Shown here in pieces: positions 4,110 through 59,300 of a stretch of 64,000 bases of DNA (position 1 is the first letter of the stretch; each line of letters begins with the position of its first letter). Position numbers and translations under genes: made by a program. The notes beneath the pieces are model-generated. The model saw nothing but the letters and a program-made list of their open reading frames with translations. It did no database searches and was not told where the DNA came from. The stretch covers positions 23,541-87,540 of the forward strand of contig JBAQFZ010000008.1 in assembly GCA_049287525.1 (NCBI GenBank), read 5' to 3'. The DNA comes from Halobacteriota archaeon. Its GTDB lineage: Archaea > Halobacteriota > Syntropharchaeia > Alkanophagales > Methanospirareceae.

Positions 4110-5093
4110 ATGGAAACGATAAAATCTATATTGATTGCAGCTAGTTTATTATTCCTGGTGGTTGTAGCAGGGACAGTTGGCTTCTGGTATCTCGAAGGAC
4201 TCCCTCTCTTCGATGCTTTATACTTAACTATCACTACCGTTACCACGGTGGGATACGGCGATATCGTGCCGGAGACACAGGGCGGTAAAATATTCACGGT
4301 GGTATTGGTCATAGCAGGCACTGGCATAACCTTATATGCGCTAGTTGAGATAATGGGAGCAGTATTAGAAGGAAGATTAAGCAAAGCTTTTGGTCTCGCG
4401 AGGGTAAAGAGAAGCGTGGCGAAGATGAAGAACCATAAGATAATATGTGGCGGTGGACGTACCGGGAACATAGTAGCAGATGAATTTAGAAGAGCGGGTT
4501 TGACGTTTGTGGTGATTGAGCACGACCCGGAGATAGCAAAAAAACTGAGGCGGGATGATAGATCCGTAATAGAAGGAGATGCCACAAGTGATGAGATCTT
4601 GATAGAAGCGGGTGTGGAACATGCTTCCGGACTGGTGTCCACGCTGCCTTCGGATTGTAGCAATTTATTGCTCTGTATTACGGCAAGAGACCTGAACAAG
4701 AATATAGAGTTAGTTGCACGAGCGAGTTCTAAAGAGGCTGCTAAGAGATTATACAGCATAGGCGTGAAAAAAGTGGTGATTGTGGAAGAAATAGGTGGTC
4801 GCAGGTTAGCAAAGAGCTTAACAAAGCCGGCAATCGAGGCTTTCCTGGATTTCGCAACGAAGACAGGTGAAGCCTCTTTGGAGAGTCTAAAAGTGGAGCA
4901 CGGCACGAAGATTGCAAATAAGAAGATAAAAGACCTGAGGTTAAAGGAGAAGATAGGCGCGACTATTCTCGCTATCATACGGGATGATAAAGTCATATCG
5001 AACGTAGGGCCTGAGGACGAATTAAGAGAGGGCGATACCGTTGTGGTCATAGGAAAGAAAGAATCGGTCGAGAAGTTTGAGAAACTGGATTGA
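4110..5093 (+). CDS. MthK-like Ca-gated potassium channel (2TM pore + TrkA-N/RCK + TrkA-C)
   Basis: K+ selectivity filter TTVGYGD; RCK Rossmann motif IICGGGRTG; C-terminal TrkA-C domain. Confidence 0.85.
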   Translation: METIKSILIAASLLFLVVVAGTVGFWYLEGLPLFDALYLTITTVTTVGYGDIVPETQGGKIFTVVLVIAGTGITLYALVEIMGAVLEGRLSKAFGLARVKRSVAKMKNHKIICGGGRTGNIVADEFRRAGLTFVVIEHDPEIAKKLRRDDRSVIEGDATSDEILIEAGVEHASGLVSTLPSDCSNLLLCITARDLNKNIELVARASSKEAAKRLYSIGVKKVVIVEEIGGRRLAKSLTKPAIEAFLDFATKTGEASLESLKVEHGTKIANKKIKDLRLKEKIGATILAIIRDDKVISNVGPEDELREGDTVVVIGKKESVEKFEKLD

Positions 5094-13703: not shown

Positions 13704-15752
13704 ATGAAGGGAAGAGCGATATTTATTGCAGCGATTTTAGTGGTATCTATTGTTGCTTTGACGGGTGTTGTGAGCAGCGTAGCAGCGACGGAAAAGATAG
13801 ATTTGTTCCTGTTAATAGATGGATCTGGTAGTGTCGCGGCGGAGGACTATATAAATCAAACGAGCGGCTATGCCGCGGCTATTGATAATGAATCGATTGT
13901 TCCACAGGACGGCTCTGTCTCGATTTGCGTGATTATGTTCGGCTTTAAGCCGGGTGGTGTGTATAATCCTCAACTTATGCCTTATAATGTATATAATTAC
14001 GCTAAGGTGATTGTTCCTTACACCACAATCACGAACGCAGCGGTGGCAAAAAGTGTTTCCGAAACGATAAGTAATACGAAGCAGCCGGGGGATGGGACAC
14101 CAATAGAAGCGGCATTCCATGTAGCGATTGAGGAGTTAAAGAAAGCAGTCAAAGAGGGTAAAATTGAACTGAATAAATCTACACAAAAGATAGATATATC
14201 CTCAGATGGACGCCCAAACATGATGCACTTACGGGACTTCTATGGCAAATTTAGAGATGAAAAAGACAAAGAAGCGGTATACAAAGCGTTTGATGCGAGA
14301 ACCGAAGCAATAGCGGCAGGATTTGACGAAATCAATGCGCTTGGTGTGGACCTCAAAGACACAACACGGTCTTATCCGTATAACCGTGAATTCCTGGAAG
14401 ATATGGTTTTGCCACAGCCTTGTGACACAGAGCCGCCAGGCTTTTTCATGGAGACGAGCAGGGCGGATTTTCCGAAGACATTAAAAGAGAAGATAAAAAT
14501 AGAATTACACCCATTTATCAGCGTCAATAAGAGTGTCAGTAAAATATTATGCAATCCCGGTGATGTACTGACCTATACGATAAATTATAGCAACACGAAT
14601 AACGTAAACCTGACAGAAGTCGTTTTAACCGACCCGATTCCTGCTACTACTACTACTTTAGTCTCAGGAAGCATATCAAATGGGGGGACGGTATCGTTGG
14701 ATGGCGTGATTACCTGGAACATAGGCGAGTTGCACGTAGGAAAAGCGGGCACGCAGTCGTTCCAGGTAAGGGTTCACGACCATCTCACAAACGGGACGAT
14801 AATCACGAATACCGCCACGATAGCGAGCAATGAAACAGGACCGGTCAGCGACTCGGTGAACACGACTGTTATATCTCATCCACATATCAGCATCACTAAA
14901 AGCGTCGGTGAAATATTATGCAATCCCGGTGACGTGCTGCACTATACGATAAATTATAGCAACACGAATAACGTAAACCTGACAGAAGTCGTTTTAACCG
15001 ACCCGATTCCTGCTACTACTACTTTAGTCTCAGGAAGCATATCAAATGGGGGGACGGTATCGTCGGATGGCGTGATTACCTGGAACATAGGCGAATTGCA
15101 CGTAGGAGAATCGGGCATGCAGTCGTTCCGGGCAAGGGTTCACGACTCCCTCGCAAACGGGACGATAATCACGAATACCGCCACGATAGCGAGCAATGAA
15201 ACAGGACCGGTCAGCGCCTCGGTGACCACGACTGTTATAGTGCCGAAAATTTTTGAACTATCAGCCTATAAGGCGGTTGATAAGATGTTTGCATCACCAA
15301 ACGAGACGCTCTGCTACCAGATACAATACAAAAATACCGGAACGGAGACGCTCACGCACACTGAGGTAAAAGATACGATACCAGAGAACACCACTTACAT
15401 AGCGGGAAGCATGGGTCTAAACGGTGAAGGTCTAACCGATGGAGCCGGTGATGACGCAGGAAGCTATTACGCAGGGAACAAGACGTTGATATGGGATATA
15501 GGTACATTGGAACCCGGTGAAGGCGGGGATGCGACCTTTAAAGTCACAATAAACGCATTTGTACCCGGAGGAACAATCATACGCAACACCGCTATCCTGA
15601 CAACTAATGAGACATTACCTATTAATCGGACGGTAATAACAAAGGTCAGACCGCCGATACTACTACCAGTGCTGACGTCAGTGGGTATCGCGGTCTTGAT
15701 CGGGCTGCTGAGTCTGGTTGCAATACGCGGTATGAGTGGAAGGCGAAGATAA
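13704..15752 (+). CDS. secreted vWA-domain + DUF11-repeat surface protein with C-terminal TM anchor
   Basis: Signal peptide; vWA MIDAS motif DLFLLIDGSGSV; two near-identical ~122-aa DUF11-type repeats (CNPGDVL.YTINYSNTNNVNLTEVVLTDPIPATTT); C-terminal PPILLP + TM + RRR. Confidence 0.7.
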   Translation: MKGRAIFIAAILVVSIVALTGVVSSVAATEKIDLFLLIDGSGSVAAEDYINQTSGYAAAIDNESIVPQDGSVSICVIMFGFKPGGVYNPQLMPYNVYNYAKVIVPYTTITNAAVAKSVSETISNTKQPGDGTPIEAAFHVAIEELKKAVKEGKIELNKSTQKIDISSDGRPNMMHLRDFYGKFRDEKDKEAVYKAFDARTEAIAAGFDEINALGVDLKDTTRSYPYNREFLEDMVLPQPCDTEPPGFFMETSRADFPKTLKEKIKIELHPFISVNKSVSKILCNPGDVLTYTINYSNTNNVNLTEVVLTDPIPATTTTLVSGSISNGGTVSLDGVITWNIGELHVGKAGTQSFQVRVHDHLTNGTIITNTATIASNETGPVSDSVNTTVISHPHISITKSVGEILCNPGDVLHYTINYSNTNNVNLTEVVLTDPIPATTTLVSGSISNGGTVSSDGVITWNIGELHVGESGMQSFRARVHDSLANGTIITNTATIASNETGPVSASVTTTVIVPKIFELSAYKAVDKMFASPNETLCYQIQYKNTGTETLTHTEVKDTIPENTTYIAGSMGLNGEGLTDGAGDDAGSYYAGNKTLIWDIGTLEPGEGGDATFKVTINAFVPGGTIIRNTAILTTNETLPINRTVITKVRPPILLPVLTSVGIAVLIGLLSLVAIRGMSGRRR

Positions 15753-27190: not shown

Positions 27191-29476
27191 ATGGAAACAA
27201 AAAAGAGAGGAGGAACGATAACAGGTATTGCTCTGGTAGCGATTATGGTCGCTTCAGTTATGCTCGCAATGGTCGCGAGCACCGCAGCGTACAGCACAGG
27301 CGGAAAATACAATATCATTAACAACTCAACAACACCACCTGCACAACAAGTACTGACAGGACAGGATCTGAAATTCATAAAGGGTACTGATGCTCTTGAG
27401 TGGACATCGGCACCGACAGTAATGCAGTATGGATCTAATGGTAACCAAGAACATACGTATCCATCGGCAGTGGGAGACGGTGGGGACTTTTACATCGACA
27501 ACGTGGACTGGGGTACGTCAGGTACATTTTATGTGAACGGTGGTGCGACCGTAAGTGCTGCCTACTGCGCACAGCTTTCTGTCAGTGACCCAAAAATACC
27601 GCTGCAGCTAAAAGTAGGTGATAAGATAGTGACGTCACTTGCCAAGGGTACGCCAGGATTTCACACAGATGTTGGAGGTAGAAATCTGTTCCCCGAGGAT
27701 GGTGTAGACCTCGTGATTATGGGTCCCAACGGGCAGATAACAACAAAGAACGGCCAGAATTTTAAAGGCATAAATGTGAGTACATTGACCGATTATACAA
27801 GTGTGAACTTTATTAACACCACAGGCTGGGACGTAGGGCATTACACCTTCCAGGTGAAGACCAAACCGGAAAACGCATGTGGCCTGGATACACAGAGCAC
27901 ACTGCGGGAGATGAACATAATAAAAGCTGCGGTAACAATAACAGCGGAGCCGACAGAAGTAGCGGAACTCACAACCGTGAAACTCACAGTAACTGGTGTT
28001 GCCGGTACGCCGATAAATGTACTAGAAGACACTTTAAGTCCGCATGCTTATTTCCCTGCAGGGCTTAATGACAACCAGGGACCAAAGAATAACAATTTCA
28101 CTGATACAATAGACAGTGACGGCACGCGGACCTACGCAGTGGAGTTCAACGATACCGGTGCATACACAATTAAAGTGACGGATTTAAACGATCTATCAGG
28201 AGATACATATGACACCGTTGACATTACCGTTACAGAGAAGGGAGTTACCTTTGACGTGCCAAGCACAGTAGTTATCGGGCAGCGGTTTACGATAAAAGGG
28301 ACTGCAAATACAGGCAATATGGTTACGGTTGCCGTGGATGACGAGGTGGTGTTGAAACTGAATAATATCGTAATAGACGAGAACAACGAATTCTCGGAGG
28401 AGATAGATACAAGCGCAGATGCAGCACCCGGGGCATTCAAGCTTCCAGGTTCTGTGAGGTTGAAGGCGTACATTGACTATCCAGGGGGCACTGGTCCGGT
28501 ACTCCAAGGCATAACAGACGATGGCTCGTTTGCGATATTAATGACAAAAGGCGAATTAACGGCTGAACTGTCAACAAAAAGCGTAGCGAAGGGCGATGAT
28601 TTCACAATCATCGGTAAGGCAAAAGGCTCAAAGAACGTGAATATATTGATAGTCGCACCAAAGGGTTTCAGTGGTTCAAACATAGAAACAAACGGTAAGG
28701 AGATGTATTACACATCAACGTCTGTCACAACTACCGATGATAGTTTCTACAAGAAGATCACCGTGAACGATGACGTGAACTCGGGCAAATATCTCGTGAT
28801 GATACTCAGCGCGGGAAGCGACGACAAATGGGGAAAGAGCGGTTACGATACACTTTATAACCCAAGTAAGCCAACGGATACTAATACCGCTTTAGGTCAG
28901 TATACATTAAGCACCAGGACACAGGAAGGGATGTTGGAGATAGTAAAAGATATGAGTGCTTTAAGCGATGACCTCCTGTGGATAGGGCTCGTAAACGTGG
29001 AATCGCCGTATGTGATTCTTAACCCAATAGCAGAGGTGAACATTGGAGAACCTATGGAAGTAACAGGAACTACAAACAGAAAGGATGGATATACCATAGT
29101 TGTCACAGCTAAAGGACCGACAGAGCTAACTCCGGCGACCGTACCGGTACATAACAGTACGTTCAACGCAACGTTAGACACTTCAGATGCTAAGGTAGGC
29201 GTGTACGTAGTGACGGCAGACGATGGTGATGGTAATACAGATACAGAGCAGGTGAGCATAGGAGGAGCAGCAGTACCGGCTGAGACGCCACTAACATCGC
29301 CAGCAGCAGAAACACCAATGCCAACAGCAGAAGCACCAACGCCAGCAGCAGAAACACCAATGCCAACAGAAGAAGCACCAACACCAACACCAAAACCAGT
29401 ACCAGGATTCGTAGGTGTGTTCGCCATTGCAGGCTTGTTAGCGGTTGCCTACCTATTACTGAGGAGAAGGAAGTAG
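27191..29476 (+). CDS. PGF-CTERM surface (S-layer-like) glycoprotein
   Basis: Signal peptide; 700-aa beta-rich ectodomain; Thr/Pro-rich linker AETPMPTAEAPTPAAETPMPTEEAPTPTPKP; PGF motif + TM + RRRK at the C-terminus (archaeosortase A sorting signal). Confidence 0.8.
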   Translation: METKKRGGTITGIALVAIMVASVMLAMVASTAAYSTGGKYNIINNSTTPPAQQVLTGQDLKFIKGTDALEWTSAPTVMQYGSNGNQEHTYPSAVGDGGDFYIDNVDWGTSGTFYVNGGATVSAAYCAQLSVSDPKIPLQLKVGDKIVTSLAKGTPGFHTDVGGRNLFPEDGVDLVIMGPNGQITTKNGQNFKGINVSTLTDYTSVNFINTTGWDVGHYTFQVKTKPENACGLDTQSTLREMNIIKAAVTITAEPTEVAELTTVKLTVTGVAGTPINVLEDTLSPHAYFPAGLNDNQGPKNNNFTDTIDSDGTRTYAVEFNDTGAYTIKVTDLNDLSGDTYDTVDITVTEKGVTFDVPSTVVIGQRFTIKGTANTGNMVTVAVDDEVVLKLNNIVIDENNEFSEEIDTSADAAPGAFKLPGSVRLKAYIDYPGGTGPVLQGITDDGSFAILMTKGELTAELSTKSVAKGDDFTIIGKAKGSKNVNILIVAPKGFSGSNIETNGKEMYYTSTSVTTTDDSFYKKITVNDDVNSGKYLVMILSAGSDDKWGKSGYDTLYNPSKPTDTNTALGQYTLSTRTQEGMLEIVKDMSALSDDLLWIGLVNVESPYVILNPIAEVNIGEPMEVTGTTNRKDGYTIVVTAKGPTELTPATVPVHNSTFNATLDTSDAKVGVYVVTADDGDGNTDTEQVSIGGAAVPAETPLTSPAAETPMPTAEAPTPAAETPMPTEEAPTPTPKPVPGFVGVFAIAGLLAVAYLLLRRRK

Positions 29477-29518
29477 AGACTTCGCAAGGCTGAAAACCGA
29501 AACCTAAAAAAGAAAGAA

Positions 29519-29556
29519 TTGTGGGGGTGTTTTTTTTTAATCCCCTTTTTTTATTT
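29519..29556 (+). terminator. putative terminator (G/C stem with oligo-T tracts)
   Basis: gtgggggtgtttttttttaatccccttttttt follows the surface protein stop codon. Confidence 0.45.
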
Positions 29557-29899
29557 TGTATTTTTATAGAACCGCGAGATTACACAAGATTAACACAGAG
29601 GGAAAAAGTGGAAGATACGACTGAAAAGTGGCTTTATAGGGACTTAACACAAAAGATTATCGGTGTAGCGATGGAAGTGCATCGTGAATTAGGCACTGGC
29701 TTTCTTGAATATGTTTATGAGGAGGCTTTATGTTATGAGCTAAATTTGGGAGAGATTCATTTTGAAAGACAGAAAGAACTCGATAAGTTAGAGATGAAAA
29801 GAAGAATCTTGTGAAACAAACCCTTTCAGGGTTTTAGAAGAAACCCGTAGGGTTTCCTGTGGACGTGGGCAGAGCCCACGATGTGTAATCTTGTGGTTA
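29553..29899. mobile_element. MITE-like repeat copy 4 carrying a truncated GxxExxY gene between its left end and hairpin module
   Basis: Left end accgcgagattacacaagattaacacagag; right end hairpins plus the inverted end gatgtgtaatcttgtggtta. The internal ~220 bp differ from the other copies and encode the GxxExxY fragment. Confidence 0.55.
29608..29814 (+). pseudogene. GxxExxY family protein, C-terminally truncated remnant
   Basis: A GTG start with GAGGG upstream gives ...IIGVAMEVHRELGTGFLEYVYEEALCYELNLGEIHFERQKEL, then terminates early relative to ~125-aa family members. Confidence 0.4.
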
Positions 29900-30014
29900 T
29901 AAAAGGAGCTAAACAAATACGAGCTTTTTATTCACTAATAAATATTATTCCTGCTCTTACAAGCGAAAAAAAGGATTATATTATGCTGCTAAGTTCATAT
30001 AATTAATTAAATTA

Positions 30015-30086
30015 GCCCCAGTGTGGTAATGGAAATCCATTGGGCCTGCGGAGCCTAATATCCGGGTTCGATTCCCGGCTGGGGCA
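30015..30086 (+). tRNA. tRNA-Arg (anticodon GCG)
   Basis: Manual cloverleaf: 7-bp acceptor GCCCCAG/CTGGGGC, D-stem TGGT/TCCA, anticodon stem TGGGC/GCCTA, loop CTGCGGA, T-arm CCGGG-TTCGATT-CCCGG, discriminator A; no encoded CCA. Confidence 0.8.
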
Positions 30087-30107
30087 TTCATCTCAATTCA
30101 ACTTAAT

Positions 30108-30887
30108 TCAAATCAATTCAATTTTGAACACGCGCGCGAAATTGCGCTCTATTGCTGCGTCCACGGACTCGAACTCGAGCTTCTTTTGCCGTGCTATCTC
30201 TTCGTACACCACCTTTACGTGCTGTGGCACATTCCTTTCTTCCGCTACATCAGGAGAGAGATAAGGTGCATCTGTCTCTGTAAACAAATAAGAAAGCGGT
30301 ATTCTATTCGCGACCTTCTTCATGCTCTTGCTTCGCACTATTGATGCAGGCAGCGAGATGTAATAACCTTCTTCACATATCAGTGCCGCAAGCTGCGGCT
30401 TGCCCGTGAAGCAATGAAAAACCGCTTTCGGGATGTCCGCATCCGAAACGAGCTTCAAACCGTCCTCTATCGCTTCGCTGCCCGTACCCCGCAGATGAAG
30501 CACAACCGGTAAATCGAGCTCCTTCGCAAGCTCAAGAAACTCTTCAAATACTGCTCTTGTACGCTTTATCTTTAACGGGTCGCGTACCCGGTGGTAGTCA
30601 AGCCCTATTTCGCCTATGCCCACTATTCTACTTTTGTTCTTGCTTATGAACTCTTGATAATCCTCTATCTCATGGGCTGTTCGGTCTGCCACGTGTATCG
30701 GATGTAGCCCAAGCGAAACGAATACGAAGCCGGTATGCAATTCTGCAAGTTCTAACGCCTTCTTTGCATCTTCCGGGTCCACGCCACTTGTGACCACGCC
30801 CTTTAATTCCTGCTTGCCCGCCTCTATCACCTGCTCACGGTCCGTGTCGTAATCCGCAAACGTCAGATGGCAGTGTATGTCTATCAT
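30108..30887 (-). CDS. tatD: TatD family metal-dependent hydrolase/DNase
   Basis: MIDIHCHL N-terminus; conserved His/Glu/Asp metal ligands; 259 aa. Confidence 0.85.
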   Translation of the reverse strand: MIDIHCHLTFADYDTDREQVIEAGKQELKGVVTSGVDPEDAKKALELAELHTGFVFVSLGLHPIHVADRTAHEIEDYQEFISKNKSRIVGIGEIGLDYHRVRDPLKIKRTRAVFEEFLELAKELDLPVVLHLRGTGSEAIEDGLKLVSDADIPKAVFHCFTGKPQLAALICEEGYYISLPASIVRSKSMKKVANRIPLSYLFTETDAPYLSPDVAEERNVPQHVKVVYEEIARQKKLEFESVDAAIERNFARVFKIELI

Positions 30888-30932
30888 TTTAATCTCCTTA
30901 AACTGATTAGGAGTTTTATAATGATAAACAAG

Positions 30933-30968
30933 ATACAGGATACAGGATACAGGATGCAGGATACAGGA
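30933..30968. repeat. heptamer array (CAGGATR)x5, left flank of four-helix-bundle gene
   Basis: caggatacaggatacaggatgcaggatacaggagg; its final unit supplies a GGAGG RBS 7 nt before the ATG. Confidence 0.6.
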
Positions 30969-30973
30969 GGGAA

Positions 30974-31354
30974 TTGATGGGTATTCAGACGTATAATGAC
31001 CTGGAAATCTATCAGTTAAGTCATGAGCTGGCAGTTGAAATACATAAGCTGAGCCTTAGCCTCCCGAAAATCGAGTTATACGAAGAAGGGAGCCAATTGA
31101 GGAGATCAGCTAAGGCAATCCCGGTGAATATCGTTGAGGGATTTGGCCGCCGCCGATACAAAAATGATTTTATCCGATTCCTCACTTTTGCTCTGGCATC
31201 CTGCGACGAAACAAAAGAGCATCTAAAAATACTGCGTGAGACCGAAGCTCTCACTGATAATGATATTTTTGATAACTTTATACAGAAGTACGAAGAATTA
31301 GGGCGAAAAATCTACACTTTCATTAAAGCTGTGGAATCTGGTCATAAATCATAG
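30974..31354 (+). CDS. four-helix-bundle protein (family often found in 23S rRNA intervening sequences)
   Basis: DLEIYQLSHELAVEIHKLSLSLPKIELYEEGSQLRRSAKAIPVNIVEGFGRR is a typical signature. ATG at 30977 (track lists TTG at 30974). Confidence 0.65.
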   Translation: MMGIQTYNDLEIYQLSHELAVEIHKLSLSLPKIELYEEGSQLRRSAKAIPVNIVEGFGRRRYKNDFIRFLTFALASCDETKEHLKILRETEALTDNDIFDNFIQKYEELGRKIYTFIKAVESGHKS

Positions 31355-31400
31355 TCATGTATCTTGCATCCTGCATCTTGCATCTTGCATCTTGCATCCC
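31350..31400. repeat. inverted heptamer array (GCATCYT)n, right flank of cassette
   Basis: tcatgtatcttgcatcctgcatcttgcatcttgcatcttgcatcc; it is the reverse complement of CARGATG units. Confidence 0.6.
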
Positions 31401-31420
31401 AGCAGCCAAACATCCATAAA

Positions 31421-32440
31421 ATGAGATACGTAACCTTCTCCCGGAATGTATTCATACCGGTAACGAACGTATGCCGGAATGCCTGTGCGTACTGTGTGTA
31501 CCGTGCTCGCAGTCCCGACGCCGCTTATTTAGTGCGTAAGGCGGATTTTTTCGCACTCGTGAATAGAACAAAACTAGAAGCAACCGAAGCGCTTTTTACG
31601 GCAGGCGAGAAGCCCGAACTCGCCAACCCCGGGTTTTTCACGTGGCTTCATAATGCTACCGGCTGCTCTACCCTTGTCGAATACACGAAAGAGCTGTGTA
31701 AACTTGCGATTACGCATGGATTACTGCCTCATTGTAATCTGGGCGTATTGAGCGCGGACGAACTCGAAGCGTTACGAGACGTGAATGCCTCTATGGGCTT
31801 GATGCTCGAAACCACGGCAGAGCTCGATGCGCATAAGAACTCGCCGGGCAAAGTGCCGGAAGAGAGATTGAAGATGATTGCAGAAGCAGGAAAGCTTAAG
31901 ATTCCGTTCACTACTGGCTTGTTGATTGGCATAGGCGAGACGCCAGAGGACCGCATCCGTTCTCTGGAAGCTATTAAGTCGTTACATGAGATATACGGAC
32001 ATATCCAGGAAGTTATTATCCAGCCCTTCGTGCCCAAACCGTTCACGCAGATGGCAAACACGGGCTCGCCTAGCTTTGAGGCATTGAAAGAAGCTGTACG
32101 TGCGGCGAGAAGGATATTGCCAGCGGAAATCGCGATTCAGGTGCCCCCTAATTTGACCTCGCCACGTGAATTAATAGAACTTGGTGCTTCGGACCTGGGT
32201 GGCATTTCAGAGCGGACTATTGACTATATAAATCCCGAATCGCCATGGCCTCGTGAGGACGAGCTCAGGCAGCTAGTTTATCCGTTTTTACTGCGAGAAA
32301 GATTGCCGATATATCCCGGCTTTATCAAAAAGGGCTGGTATAGTGAGGAGATACGTCCTTTGATAGAGCGATATGCGGGTGAGGACGGGTTGAGAAGAAT
32401 CCATAATTTCATTAAAGATGTGGAATTTGGTCATACATAG
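31421..32440 (+). CDS. cofG: 7,8-didemethyl-8-hydroxy-5-deazariboflavin (FO) synthase subunit 1, radical SAM
   Basis: MRYVTFSRNVFIPVTNVCRNACAYCVY carries the CxxxCxxC cluster motif. The track ORF start at 31364 reads through the upstream repeat array and is rejected. Confidence 0.85.
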   Translation: MRYVTFSRNVFIPVTNVCRNACAYCVYRARSPDAAYLVRKADFFALVNRTKLEATEALFTAGEKPELANPGFFTWLHNATGCSTLVEYTKELCKLAITHGLLPHCNLGVLSADELEALRDVNASMGLMLETTAELDAHKNSPGKVPEERLKMIAEAGKLKIPFTTGLLIGIGETPEDRIRSLEAIKSLHEIYGHIQEVIIQPFVPKPFTQMANTGSPSFEALKEAVRAARRILPAEIAIQVPPNLTSPRELIELGASDLGGISERTIDYINPESPWPREDELRQLVYPFLLRERLPIYPGFIKKGWYSEEIRPLIERYAGEDGLRRIHNFIKDVEFGHT

Positions 32441-32478
32441 ATCATAGTCCTGCATCCGGCATCTTGCATCCTGCATCC
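32441..32478. repeat. second copy of the inverted heptamer array after cofG
   Basis: atcatagtcctgcatccggcatcttgcatcctgcatcc is near-identical to 31350-31400. The preceding ~45 nt (ttcattaaagatgtggaatttggtcata) duplicate the 3' end of the four-helix-bundle gene. Confidence 0.6.
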
Positions 32479-32517
32479 TAACGGCTATACAAATACAATT
32501 AGCTATATTTATCATTC

Positions 32518-33729
32518 ATGCGCGCTGACCAAACAGTCACAAAAGTGGTTATAATCACCGCAATCTGTGTCTTTAGCACGCAATTTGGTGTTACTGTGAT
32601 TGCACCGCTGCTTGGCATGTGGGTAATAGCATCAGACATCCCCCAGCAGTTCCTTGTAGCGGGTTTGATAATCGCGGTGTTCGCGCTTGCAAGTCTGGCT
32701 CTTAACATTCCAGGCGGTATTATATCCGATAAATGGGGCAGGAAACCCTTGATTGTAGCAGGGCTTATCCTTTACGCCGTTGCCGCGCTGCTATTCCCGC
32801 TTTCCATGAGCCCTTATGATTGGATATTTGTAAGAGCTTTACAAGGCGCGGGTGCTGGCTTCTTCTTTCCCGCAGTCACTGCTTTGCTTGCCGACATCAC
32901 GACTCGCGAGGAGCGAGGGCATGCGTTTAGCATCTACAACATGGGTTTGGGCATTGGTTTGGCAGGGGGTCCAATTTCAGGCGGGCTCCTCTTTGTAATC
33001 TACGGTATTTTCATGCCATTTCTCTTTTGCGCAGTCTTCGCATTTATAAGCGTGGTCCTGGTGCTGCTCTTTGTTCGAGAGCCGAACCGGGAAATAAGGG
33101 CAAAAGAGAAGAGGGGGAAGAGGGGCGAATGGTTAGCCGTGGGTGCGCGGGAACGAAAGGTATTGACTCTTTGCTGTCTCCTGGTATTCTTCGGTCAGGG
33201 CGTGGCATCCGTGATGAGCGGGTTGTTCTCGCCTTTTGCTGTCGCGGAGTTACATATTTCTGAAGCGCTCATCGGCGCGATTCTTTCTGTGATGTTCGTG
33301 ACGTTCACATTACTGCAACCGGGCTTTAACCGGCTGATGACGCGAATAGGGGAAGTCAATCTCGCGGTTACCGGCTTGTTCTTCTGCGTTTGCGGCTTGA
33401 TTATGCTCTATTCGGCGACCTGTGTATTAGCATTGTTTATAATGTGCGTATTCCTGGGTGCAGGTATAGGTGCGATTTTACTTGGCATGTTAACATTAGC
33501 ATCGAAAGTGGCGGGCAAAGGAGAGGAAGGGAAAGTAATGGGCATTTATTACACGACGTTCTATGCCAGTCTTGGTTCTATTCCGGTAGTTTGTGGTGCG
33601 CTCGCAGACATAGTCGGAGCACGCTTGCTATTCTTAGGGTATGCCGGACTTTTACTCGTGTTGATGCTTATAGTTGTAGTGTGGGAGGTGTATTCCCGAT
33701 CCCGAGAACCACCGTATTGTCGCTTCTAA
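32518..33729 (+). CDS. MFS transporter
   Basis: 403 aa, 12 TM; MFS motif GIISDKWGRKP. Confidence 0.75.
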   Translation: MRADQTVTKVVIITAICVFSTQFGVTVIAPLLGMWVIASDIPQQFLVAGLIIAVFALASLALNIPGGIISDKWGRKPLIVAGLILYAVAALLFPLSMSPYDWIFVRALQGAGAGFFFPAVTALLADITTREERGHAFSIYNMGLGIGLAGGPISGGLLFVIYGIFMPFLFCAVFAFISVVLVLLFVREPNREIRAKEKRGKRGEWLAVGARERKVLTLCCLLVFFGQGVASVMSGLFSPFAVAELHISEALIGAILSVMFVTFTLLQPGFNRLMTRIGEVNLAVTGLFFCVCGLIMLYSATCVLALFIMCVFLGAGIGAILLGMLTLASKVAGKGEEGKVMGIYYTTFYASLGSIPVVCGALADIVGARLLFLGYAGLLLVLMLIVVVWEVYSRSREPPYCRF

Positions 33730-56370: not shown

Positions 56371-59300
56371 CTAAAGAAACAACTTAATAGCTGGTATCCA
56401 GTCATAATAAATTCTCCCATTAGCGTCAATGAATATATCGCAAGTGATTGTTCCCATGCCATTGGCTACTTCTAAGCTCTCGGTATGGTGAATCTGCGGA
56501 TAAGAGCCTGTTTCTATGACGTAGGTGTATTCATTGTTTTTATACAGCGTGACAGAAGGAGTAATTGTTATGTTATGCCAATCGCCTGCATAGCCGTTCC
56601 AGGTGCCGCTTGCTATCAATTCGCCATTTTCATATATCTTGATAGACTCGGTATGCCCACCAGTGCCTGCACATGGATAGGTGTACACCCTACTAATTCT
56701 GATGTCGTAAGACGGTATGATTTTGCCTTCATGTCTGCCCATGATGCTTGGATATGGGTTCGCAGACGAACCAGTGTCAAATATCTTCTCCTCTTCAGCA
56801 GGTTTAACATAATTCTCCCAGGGCATAACCAGTGGCTGGTAGTCCTTATCCAAATCTAAATCTATGATGTATGGATTATCCCAAATACCATCATTATTGG
56901 CATCCGTGGAAATGAAATTATGCCAGTAGTTGCCGAGATAGTTTGTGTAATTACTACCTTTATAAGTGTATATTATTTTTTCGGGTGAGTTCCAGATGTT
57001 TGTTGAATTCTCGGAATAAACATTTTCGGTATTGTTTATGAAATTGTTGAGGTAGATTTTGTTGCTGGTGGTGTTCTGAAGGACAATGCCTCCAATGCTG
57101 TTGCCTATATTGTTTCCGGTAACAGCATTGCGGGTAGAATAGTTGAGGAATGAGATGCCGAGTTCGTTACCGGTGACTTCATTGTCAGTAATTGTGTTGC
57201 CATCAGAATACTCGAGGATGGAAATACCCATGACGTTGTCGCTAATAGTATTGCCGGTGATGGCGTTGCTGTTAGATTCGTATAGAGAAACGCCACCCCA
57301 TTCATTGATGAGGTAGTTGTTCTGTATTCTTGAGTTACTGGTGTTGAAGAAACCAATACCTACGAAGTTGTTTATAAGATTCAAGTCTTTTACTGTGATA
57401 TTGTCGCAGGAGATGCAGTAAACTGTGCCTGCGTTCGAGGACGAATCAATGACATTACCAGAAGCGCCTACAAGGTAGTAAATTGGCTTTCCATCTACGA
57501 GGTTGCTGGTATCAATGTCGTTGTTAAAGTCTGAGTAGCTATCGCCATCAGTTCCAAAGTTCCAGAGATTACCCATCATCAAATTATTCCTTAAAGTATT
57601 GTTGCTGGAATCCACCACATAGATGCCACTTAGGCTGTTGTTACTGGCATTGTTGTCTGTAACTATGTTGCTGTTTGATGCGTTAAGATAGATGCCACTC
57701 TCTCGATTGTTATCTGCCGTGTTGTTTGCGATTATGTTCTCGTTTGATGTCCAAAGTCCAATACCCTCGTAATAGTTAGAGTTTGCAATGTTATTGCGAA
57801 TCTCATTACTGGTTGAAAAGTTTAAAGATATACCGTTGTAGTCATTGTTTGAGACATAATTATCAGTTATCCGGTTATTGGCGGACTCATTGAGATAGAT
57901 GCCATTATCTCGATTGTTCTCTGCCGTGTTGTCTGCGATTATGTTCTCGTTTGATGACAAAAGTGCAATACCCTCGTAATAGTTAGAGTTTGCAATGTTA
58001 TTGCGAATCTCATTACTGGTTGATGAGTTTAGAGATATCCCGTTGTAGTCATTGTTTGAGACATAATTATCAGTTATCCGGTTATTGGCGGACTCCTCGA
58101 GATAGATGCCATTCTCTCGATTGTTATCTGCCGTGTTGTTTGCGATTATGTTCTCGCATGATGACAAAAGTACAATACCCTGAGCGAGATTGTTTAAGGC
58201 CTCGTTATTGGTTATTTTATTGTTGTTTGAGCCAAATAGGTATAGTCCAAAAAAACCATTTTGAAATGTTAGCCCAGAAATTGAAGTGTTATCTACAGTA
58301 ATGAATATACATGGTAAAGTCCGATCAGCTTGTATTATCGAATGCCGAGCTCGGGCATTTATTATCAGTGGTTTATTTATAATCAAGTTCTCATAATAAG
58401 TGCTAAGAAAAGTCCCAGGATAAACTTCTATTGTGTCTCCGGGCATAGCAGCTTCCACAGCTTCCGGAATCGTGCGATATTCCGCGGGAACACTGATCTT
58501 TTTGGGGACGTACGTCTTTAATTTAATAAGAGTGAGATTGCTTGCCGTATCATCTTCAGGCCATAATAGTGGATGCTGTGGATTCGGGTAGAAGAATTCT
58601 GAATATTCAACTGTCCTTGGAAAAGAGTAATCACTTAATTCTCGAGCGGAAATTCTACTATCACCATCAAGGTCTGCTGCTCCCCACAATCCCTGTACAA
58701 CATAATATGTAAATACGGAATTTTTCAATTCAAATGCGATCCATCCAATTTCATTCATTCTGCTGGACGCTAATACCATGCAATTGGCTTTTTCAAGGTC
58801 CATGGCGAATCCAAATCCATCGAGCTCATTCGACGTTTCTATTGCCTCGCTTATTTGATATGGAGTGAGAACTCCTCCACTATGGCATGCCTCTAAAATT
58901 GCAACGACTTTCTTTGCTTTCACCTCACCAATCCATTCTTCAAGTTCGTCATCTATTATCTCAGCGTCAAAAGTAATTAGTGACTCGTCAATACCATCAG
59001 CCTCGTCACCATTATAATCAATTGTATCATTTTCTCCATGTCCGGAGAAAAAGAATAGACAGGTATCCTCCGTACCAGCGTTATTAGCCATCCACTGTAT
59101 CGCATCCCTGATGTTTGCCTTTGTTGCACTTTCGTTAACTAAAATTTGGATATGGCTCGCCTCCCAATTATCTGATGCGCGAGTGAGAACATTGTACATA
59201 TCCCGTGCATCATGATACGCGTATACAGTAGTAGCTCCCACTATAACAGCCCAATATTCCTCTGCTGGAGTCTCAGTAGCTTCTTCGAATGTTATGCCGG

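Follow-up and report, generated by a model that had tools for sequence, protein, structure and literature searches.

The 64,000-nucleotide window analysed here, from contig JBAQFZ010000008.1 of a Halobacteriota archaeon (assembly GCA_049287525.1), carries between a TatD-family hydrolase gene and cofG a small cassette in which the gene for a four-helix-bundle (4HB) protein lies between inverted arrays of heptanucleotide repeats. We conclude that this cassette is probably a selfish element akin to the intervening sequences (IVSs) of 23S rRNA, here in a protein-coding context, and that a third array at the far end of cofG belongs to the 5'-deleted remnant of a second such cassette, which has rewritten the end of the cofG reading frame. 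The unit consists of a left (NNNGATR)n array, its own Shine-Dalgarno sequence, a 4HB open reading frame (ORF) of the S23p/TIGR02436 family and an inverse (YATCNNN)n array on the right.

Tandem Repeats Finder (TRF), applied to the whole window, detects arrays of CARGATR units nowhere except at this locus, where there are three. With up to two mismatches, CAGGATRCAGGAT has 15 matches in the window compared with 2.73 expected, a number that none of 100 shuffles reaches, and 13 of the 15 fall inside the three arrays. An initial annotation, made from the sequence alone, had described arrays around a 4HB gene, and TRF and PF05635 confirm both; the left array does not, however, begin as the (caggata)3 given there, but with caagata, its actual composition being caagata (caggata)2 caggatg caggata caggagg. 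As annotated, the last left unit, CAGGAGG, provides a GGAGG ribosome-binding site (30966-30970), which is located 6 nt before the 4HB ATG. The inverted arms at 30929-30968 and 31355-31394 are 83% complementary over 40 nt, and between the third and left arrays the complementarity is likewise 83%, over 30 nt. The region of the right array extends up to the cofG ATG. No match to rRNA is present in 29400-32700, where a tRNA-Arg is the sole Rfam match above gathering score; flanked by TatD and cofG, the locus therefore departs from the location within a 23S rRNA helix that characterizes S23p-type IVSs.

The 4HB gene is the sole ORF of the cassette. Its product matches PF05635 with 100.2 bits (cut-off 33.8, E 9e-29) over residues 8-113 and TIGR02436 with 107.5 bits (cut-off 24, E 4e-31) over profile positions 1-108 of 109. 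In a comparison of sequence profiles, the family also matches the Protein Data Bank (PDB) entries 2GSC (XCC0516, E 1e-18) and 2RLD (E 3e-11) across the full length, and XCC0516 is a four-helix-bundle homopentamer. PADLOC, PHROGs and IMG/VR yielded no relatives, leaving a defence-system or viral origin unsupported. We note that four 4HB homologues (P0190, P0209, P0224 and P0233 in alignment A2) have C-terminal extensions, for example ...SGHKSSIEHRESR, which look like heptamer arrays translated by readthrough into the right array after loss of the stop codon.

The insertion site is found empty in a closely related strain. L001, a Logan contig from SRR4089363 that carries tRNA-Arg, TatD and cofG, shows 13 differences from the window over 780 nt of TatD and 21 over 963 nt of cofG, such that the two are ~98% identical on both sides of the junction (dS, the synonymous divergence, about 0.055, range 0.05-0.06; ratio of non-synonymous to synonymous divergence, dN/dS, 0.125 for TatD and 0.18 for cofG). 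In L001 the gap between TatD and cofG measures 33 bp, reads gattaggaggttaataATGaaatac at the junction and holds neither a 4HB gene nor arrays, whereas the window carries ~500 extra bases (30918-31420) exactly at this junction, where L001 reads ggaggttaataATG. The otherwise near-identical site is thus polymorphic for presence and absence of the cassette, which must have been gained in the window lineage or cleanly lost in L001 within the last ~2% of divergence. The intact cassette resides between the cofG ribosome-binding site and the cofG start codon, and an upstream ORF of 18 codons (30921-30977) opens at the ATG at 30921, crosses the left array and ends in a TGA that overlaps the 4HB ATG. 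At the junctions, the left 12-mer ATAATGATAAAC and the right 12-mer AAAATGAGATAC, the true cofG start, each match 10 of 12 positions of the empty-site sequence ATAATGAAATAC, which suggests a 12-bp target-site duplication. A resemblance to the (G/T)A(T/A)AC core of the arrays is seen at the start of cofG and also at that of cheB.

Homologues of the 4HB protein with 78-89% amino-acid identity are encoded at three unrelated ANME-1 sites, in each case between a (CARGATR)n array and its inverse. The L007 cassette is located between a NifH-like gene and Rpb6, that of L008 and L009 between DUF2238 and DUF308, and that of L010-L013 inside a chemotaxis operon between CheX and CheB, where L013 has one unit more than L010-L012 at the same site, so that copy number varies between strains. 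Pairwise comparisons among these ANME-1 4HB genes, that of the window included, yield dN/dS of 0.05-0.19 at dS of 0.14-2.1, indicating that the 4HB protein is maintained by purifying selection; across the same range of dS, the heptamer unit is unchanged among the ANME-1 cassettes. Such cassettes, together with the 33-bp empty site of L001, bear out the insertion that the initial annotation had proposed. Its suggestion of a site-specific mechanism fares less well, given that no recombinase is encoded and that the target-site duplication is suggestive at best.

The package extends well beyond these archaea. A scan of metagenomes with the 4HB alignment recovered 387 relatives, of which the best 80 (54-83% identity) were examined; with the three ANME-1 loci these make 83 loci at 51 distinct sites, in bacteria (with Flavobacterium or Chryseobacterium as cultivable carriers) as well as ANME-1 archaea. 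Nearly all examined loci have NNNGATR arrays on the left and YATCNNN arrays on the right. In 61 of 77 non-redundant cassettes, the left side has three or more GATRY motifs and the right side three or more RNATC motifs, and TRF reports period-7 arrays on the left of 50, on the right of 55 and on both sides of 42 of 65 cassettes. Within 140 nt of the ORF, the density of period-7 arrays is 9.7 per kb compared with 0.32 per kb elsewhere (~30-fold). The first three positions of the unit vary by lineage (CAG, CTC, CTG, CCA, TGA, CAC and others), and they do so on both sides: in 25 of 56 cassettes the dominant triplet on the left is the Watson-Crick complement of that on the right, with five more if G-U pairs are admitted (chance ~1 in 64), as in the pairs CTC/GAG, CAG/CTG, TGA/TCA, CCA/TGG and CAC/GTG. 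A second, divergent 4HB gene (L159, 3441-4005) is located between GAAATTG (7.6 copies) and AATTTCC (21 copies) arrays, indicating that different 4HB lineages carry different heptamers and that it is the architecture, rather than the heptamer, that is conserved. Cassettes occupy entire intergenic gaps; typically, the left array begins at or shortly beyond the stop codon of the preceding gene, and 0-25 nt separate the end of the right array from the next ATG. They are co-oriented with the upstream neighbour in 45 of 45 cases and with the downstream neighbour in 40 of 42.

The end of cofG in the window is foreign to CofG. The protein matches the NF004884 equivalog profile with 400 bits (cut-off 209, E 6e-120) over residues 2-322 of 339 and TIGR03550 with 382 bits (cut-off 213, E 2e-114), has the radical-SAM CxxxCxxC motif in the form CRNACAYC, and is 97% identical to its L001 counterpart (P0001); its best homologues belong to Methanophagales (ANME-1), the group in which the host archaeon itself is placed. 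All ~120 CofG homologues among the matches listed cover only 95-97% of the query, with the match stopping ~12 residues before the end. The ten homologues whose ends were examined terminate in ...GEDGLRRL, ...LRKQ or other short unrelated tails, and in none of them is FIKDVEFGHT or the downstream array present. In the DNA of two relatives, the frame closes with gac gg(a/g) ttg agg cga (c/t)tg t(g/a)a and is followed by unrelated sequence without arrays, and neither arrays nor a 4HB gene are found at the cofG loci of L001 and L002-L006. L001 keeps a native end (...GCRKQ, then stop); a candidate array remnant there, GGATGCAGGA, was rejected, since ...LRKQ is the native ending in other orthologues (P0004). 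In the window, by comparison, the native reading ends after GLRR (32398), and 13 codons of 4HB stand in place of one codon and the stop. Both the homologue coverage and the differing native ends mark the FIKDVEFGHT tail as foreign. Of the two possibilities left by the initial annotation, that the C-terminal codons of cofG were overwritten or that the cassette captured them, the first is upheld and the second falls, because the tail is 4HB sequence and not CofG; nor do the relatives share the tail and array, as they should if these were native to cofG.

A 45-nt segment of the 4HB 3' end (31305-31349) recurs at 32394-32438 with 84% identity, followed by an array region with 82% identity, such that the recurrence described by the initial annotation is real, but its wording, 'almost identically', was too strong. 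A tblastn search with the 4HB protein matches 32360-32434, the tail being read in the 4HB frame, and the left array and 5' portion of the remnant are missing. Over the 36-nt coding tail, the remnant agrees with L007 at 33 positions, and with the neighbouring 4HB gene and with L008 at 31 each, a difference that by itself is not decisive for a second cassette. Its outer flank gcatccTAACgGCTA, however, matches the end of the L008 cassette, gcatcctaaccgcta (TAACsGCTA type), whereas the outer end of the intact cassette, gcatccCAGcaGC (gcatccCAGsrGC), is common to the L010 cassette. The different flank and a divergence above the ~2% between strains favour a second, paralogous cassette over a recent copy of the neighbour. 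Duplication was among the origins considered by the initial annotation; a recent copy of the adjacent 3' junction, arising for example by replication slippage or by unequal recombination between arrays, without a second insertion, would account for two similar stretches lying 1089 bp apart on the same strand, and the arrays are good substrates for misalignment. We nevertheless regard such a copy as unlikely, because the differences (5 of 36 coding-tail positions, an indel ahead of the array and a different unit composition) far exceed those between the strains, the tail is closer to L007 than to its neighbour, the outer flank is not the neighbour's CAGsrGC, and L001, with its native cofG end, lacks both features.

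For the paralogous cassette, we suggest that it was once located just after cofG, and that an illegitimate deletion or a 5'-truncated integration fused codon 326 of cofG, in frame, with the final 13 codons of 4HB, which would have replaced the last codon and stop codon of cofG and left a solo right array. We infer this to be the simplest route to the tail. The junction falls within a short similarity between cofG (...ttg agg cga...) and 4HB (...gga cga aaa atc...). Solo 4HB tails beside arrays, which would be a sign of 5'-truncated integration, were sought among the loci examined and found nowhere beyond the window; an origin in the style of retrotransposition gains no support.

Alternatively, the arrays could be a native regulatory feature of cofG (a terminator, attenuator or phase-variable tract), with the 4HB gene as an ordinary neighbour. 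In many genomes, heptamer tracts are a common kind of intergenic repeat (PMC4679880), the number of units differs between samples, and the upstream ORF runs through the left array, where gain or loss of units would shift its frame. For cofG this reading is largely refuted, and we consider it very improbable: the loci of L001 and L002-L006 have cofG without arrays or 4HB, the arrays accompany the 4HB gene to 51 unrelated sites, and inverse arrays on two sides with co-varying triplets are unneeded by a one-sided expression switch. Slightly less probable still is a chimeric join or collapse of the assembly at the arrays. The source is a contig of a metagenome-assembled genome (MAG), the 100% identical 4HB protein P0121 likewise derives from a 'Halobacteriota archaeon' MAG, and such genomes contain arrays elsewhere, at which many array-bearing contigs end. 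Yet at either outer junction of the intact cassette, unique host sequence gives way to an array within a few bases, no array is present at the empty site to seed a false join, the ~7 of 9 nt that the cofG/tail junction shares with 4HB are too few for a k-mer join, and the same architecture has been assembled independently in dozens of projects. The least credible of all is that 4HB is the accessory protein Avd of a diversity-generating retroelement and the duplicated tail a template-repeat/variable-repeat pair: PF05635 is the Avd-like family (PMC10053308), such retroelements have been reported from subsurface archaea and their viruses (PMC4372165), and a 45-nt repeat does end the gene, but no reverse transcriptase occurs among the ORFs at 27-36 kb (five scanned with Pfam, the rest by eye), the seven differences between the 45-nt copies are of mixed types and not adenine-specific, the repeat is 4HB's own coding tail plus microsatellite, and PADLOC is without a match.

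The closest known system, and the one experimentally studied relative, is the 23S rRNA IVS of Coxiella, in which two to three tandem GACAGAT heptamers, strain-variable in number, precede the S23p ORF, and the termini form a 28-bp stem that is cut by RNase III (PMC4990558). With S23p-type IVSs (Coxiella burnetii, Leptospira, Xanthomonas; PMC4990558) the window cassette shares an ORF of the PF05635 family, the lack of a promoter, and hence presumed transcription from the host; these IVSs are likewise regarded as selfish, with an obscure mode of spread. The likeness to Coxiella extends to GATR-core tandem heptamers upstream of the ORF (GACAGAT is ACAGATG in the register of the window), to variable copy number between strains, and to termini whose complementarity allows them to pair into a long stem enclosing the ORF. 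In contrast, the window cassette abuts protein-coding genes rather than lying within rRNA, and its host is an archaeon in which RNase III is not expected. Its arrays are long on both sides with periodic mismatches, compared with the near-perfect 28-bp stem of Coxiella, and strong purifying selection acts on its ORF, while that of Coxiella is reported to be in decay and probably not translated.

Three further systems show partial resemblance. Avd (PDB 4DWL) belongs to a related 4HB family and forms a nucleic-acid-binding pentamer, but the window shows no reverse transcriptase, template/variable pair or adenine-specific differences, and Avd genes are not described as having heptamer arrays on their two sides. 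With miniature inverted-repeat elements and their autonomous parents, the cassette has in common inverted termini, presence/absence polymorphism between near-identical strains, many unrelated sites and ORF-less hairpin forms in genomes of the same kinds; they differ in that the window element has no recognisable transposase, its termini are lineage-varying microsatellite arrays, its orientation inside operons is strictly sense, and its target-site duplication is only suggestive. The TAACTGA heptamer repeats, intergenic direct repeats of Beggiatoaceae, cyanobacteria and Bacteroidetes (PMC4679880), are also period-7 tandems of variable copy number that directly precede start codons in distant phyla, but they are direct and on one side of diverse genes, and PMC4679880 does not mention 'helix bundle' or '23S'. 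Known before were the protein family, its presence in 23S IVSs, the Coxiella heptamers and the abundance of intergenic heptamer repeats (PMC4679880), while the general package of inverted, co-varying arrays with a 4HB gene, in sense orientation within operons, at many non-rRNA sites of bacteria and ANME-1 and polymorphic between near-identical strains, is undescribed in the literature searched, whose coverage is incomplete, so that an earlier notice is possible.

The predicted fold of the cassette RNA has a free energy (dG) of -145.5 kcal/mol (z -3.9) with the arrays paired. In this minimum-free-energy model, the complementary termini, with arms of 40 nt, form a long stem around the ORF in which 6-bp helices alternate with 1x1 mismatches. 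In 56 of 77 cassettes, the computed duplex of the sense strand exceeds that of the antisense strand in stability (Wilcoxon p = 5e-7), which, together with the strict sense orientation in operons, favours a role in the transcript; on these models, pairing of the arrays at the RNA level is a more likely reading than pairing of DNA. We tentatively propose, short of considering it probable, that the promoter-less cassette rides in sense orientation on host transcripts, where its two arrays would pair into a long, mismatch-punctuated stem around the ORF. In bacteria such stems are cut by RNase III, which excises the IVS, and the stem would insulate the passenger cassette from the host RNA. The slippage-prone arrays would then represent the functional ends of the element, and the conserved 4HB protein, as a relative of the nucleic-acid-binding pentamer Avd, may be the element's own factor acting on these ends.

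Several observations weigh against the interpretation as a mobile, IVS-like cassette working through its transcript. In the window cassette itself, the antisense duplex is slightly more stable (-70.5 compared with -63.5). G-U mispairs compatible with the sense strand outnumber those compatible with the antisense strand by 86 to 60 (p = 0.04), but counted per cassette the excess is 27 to 22 and not significant, and transversions at the central R/N position account for most array mismatches. To our knowledge, archaea generally lack RNase III. Array lengths are often very unequal between the two sides, as in L008 with ~10 units on the left and 2.5 on the right. Neither in nor beside the cassette is a transposase, integrase or reverse transcriptase encoded, no trans-acting transposase or recombinase serving it was identified, and IMG/VR yielded no relatives. 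The proposed duplication consists of two 10/12 matches in AT-rich sequence, and other cassettes have no clear duplication. The nearest sampled 4HB paralogue is at a dS of at least 0.58, with no closer donor copy, such that a recent insertion in the window and a precise loss in L001 are equally compatible with the data. Finally, even with a broadened profile, a 4HB-like ORF is near only ~8 of 120 listed (CARGATR)3 loci; the implication therefore runs from the 4HB gene to the arrays and not from the arrays to the gene, and the use of (CARGATR)3 arrays as markers of 4HB cassettes in representative genomes was dropped.

Arrays without the gene are indeed widespread. More than 120 genome loci, across many bacterial phyla and a few archaea, contain (CARGATR)n arrays, which have 3 to 28 units and are mostly without 4HB; ~35 matches to (CARGATR)3 would be expected at random in 596 Gb by our estimate, and the 3-unit loci L052, L059 and L080 are uninformative. 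Many gene-less loci are hairpins between genes, composed of an array, a short loop and the inverse array, or are array pairs around decayed sequence, with L064-L066 and L079 as examples of ORF-less hairpins; a partner array, where present, lies on the inward side in 24 cases and on the other in 3. Several of the array loci (L060, L064, L065 and L083) are supplied by a single Bacteroidota MAG (JBAXLI01). In a bolder extension, which we regard as doubtful, the 4HB gene and its arrays would constitute an autonomous mobile element of an undescribed kind that crosses between bacteria and archaea, the pentameric 4HB protein would itself be the mobility factor and would read the 7-nt-periodic, mismatch-punctuated structure of the arrays rather than a fixed sequence, the ORF-less hairpins would be non-autonomous derivatives, and the 23S IVSs would be copies that landed in rRNA.

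We know of no function assigned to the ORFs of 23S IVSs, nor of a route by which these elements spread, since the early 1990s. The survey places one family at ~50 unrelated protein-coding sites in a fixed package with inverted heptamer arrays, a package that combines purifying selection on the protein, polymorphism between ~98%-identical strains and occurrence in both bacteria and ANME-1. For annotation, such cassettes displace ribosome-binding sites and can rewrite the ends of housekeeping genes (12 foreign residues were added to CofG), and they probably break assemblies at the arrays.

Table 1. Features of the cofG locus and its flanks, in coordinates of the window.
Feature	Position	Strand	Description
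TatD-family hydrolase gene	30108..30887	-	PF01026, E 4e-66; divergent upstream host neighbour, left bound of the insertion site
Left junction	30909..30929	+	AGGAG, formerly the ribosome-binding site of cofG, and a copy of its start region, ATAATGATAAAC
Left heptamer array, CARGATR, ~6 units	30928..30968	+	TRF period 7, 5.9 copies (ACAGGAT), 91% matches
4HB gene, 125 aa, S23p / TIGR02436 family	30977..31354	+	PF05635, TIGR02436
Right array (inverse units ATCYTGY, 31361-31398) and cassette outer end ccagcagccaaacatccataaa	31355..31420	+	TRF period 7, 5.4 copies (ATCTTGC)
cofG, native part, codons 1-326, ending ...GEDGLRR	31421..32398	+	FO synthase subunit 1, radical SAM
Foreign tail of cofG, 13 codons and stop, IHNFIKDVEFGHT	32399..32440	+	4HB C-terminus fused in frame
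Spacer, third array (32448-32479, inverse) and outer flank taacggctatacaaatac	32441..32497	+	Right end of remnant cassette; TRF 4.6 copies (TCCTGCA)
MFS transporter gene	32518..33729	+	PF07690, E 3e-58; downstream host neighbour

The surroundings of the locus contain further repeats. A truncated GxxExxY / PD-(D/E)XK_3 gene fragment at 29608-29814, whose profile match is confined to positions 1-48 of 116, has a 23-nt inverted repeat on its two sides (29564-29586 and 29882-29904, 83% complementary). Alongside the 4HB family, GxxExxY is the second small protein family associated with 23S IVSs, and the fragment may represent a second cassette type, 1 kb upstream of the 4HB cassette. The arm motif of this element, AACCACRAGATTRCACAGATTTTCACGA, recurs directly after cofG in L001 (2040-2077) and both before and after cofG in L002 (3186-3215 and 4448-4600), where the copies at 4448-4600 form an inverted pair ~140 bp long without an ORF; it looks like an ANME-1 family resembling miniature inverted-repeat elements that has landed repeatedly beside cofG. 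Immediately beyond the ends of the two types of element, CTAWACAAATAC recurs (window 29911-29922 and 32483-32494; L001 20-31; L007 ~3435), ~25-35 nt upstream of the next gene (tRNA-Arg or the MFS transporter), and may represent either the TATA-like box of an archaeal promoter or a favoured target.

Farther upstream, a 761-aa ORF (27191-29476) contains a Pro/Thr/Ala/Glu-rich tandem repeat of 21/42 nt (29298-29398), and its C-terminus, PGFVGVFAIAGLLAVAYLLLRRRK, looks like an archaeal PGF-CTERM sorting signal, as would befit a surface protein. Two long tandem repeats, at 14516-15239 (period 366, 2.0 copies, 92% matches) and 57686-58181 (period 207, 2.4 copies, 93%), are probably repeated domains of large surface proteins. 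Directly after the tRNA-Arg(GCG) and overlapping the TatD 3' end, a ATTCAACTCA-like repeat with a 10-nt period spans 30086-30124 (3.6 copies) and is conserved in L001.

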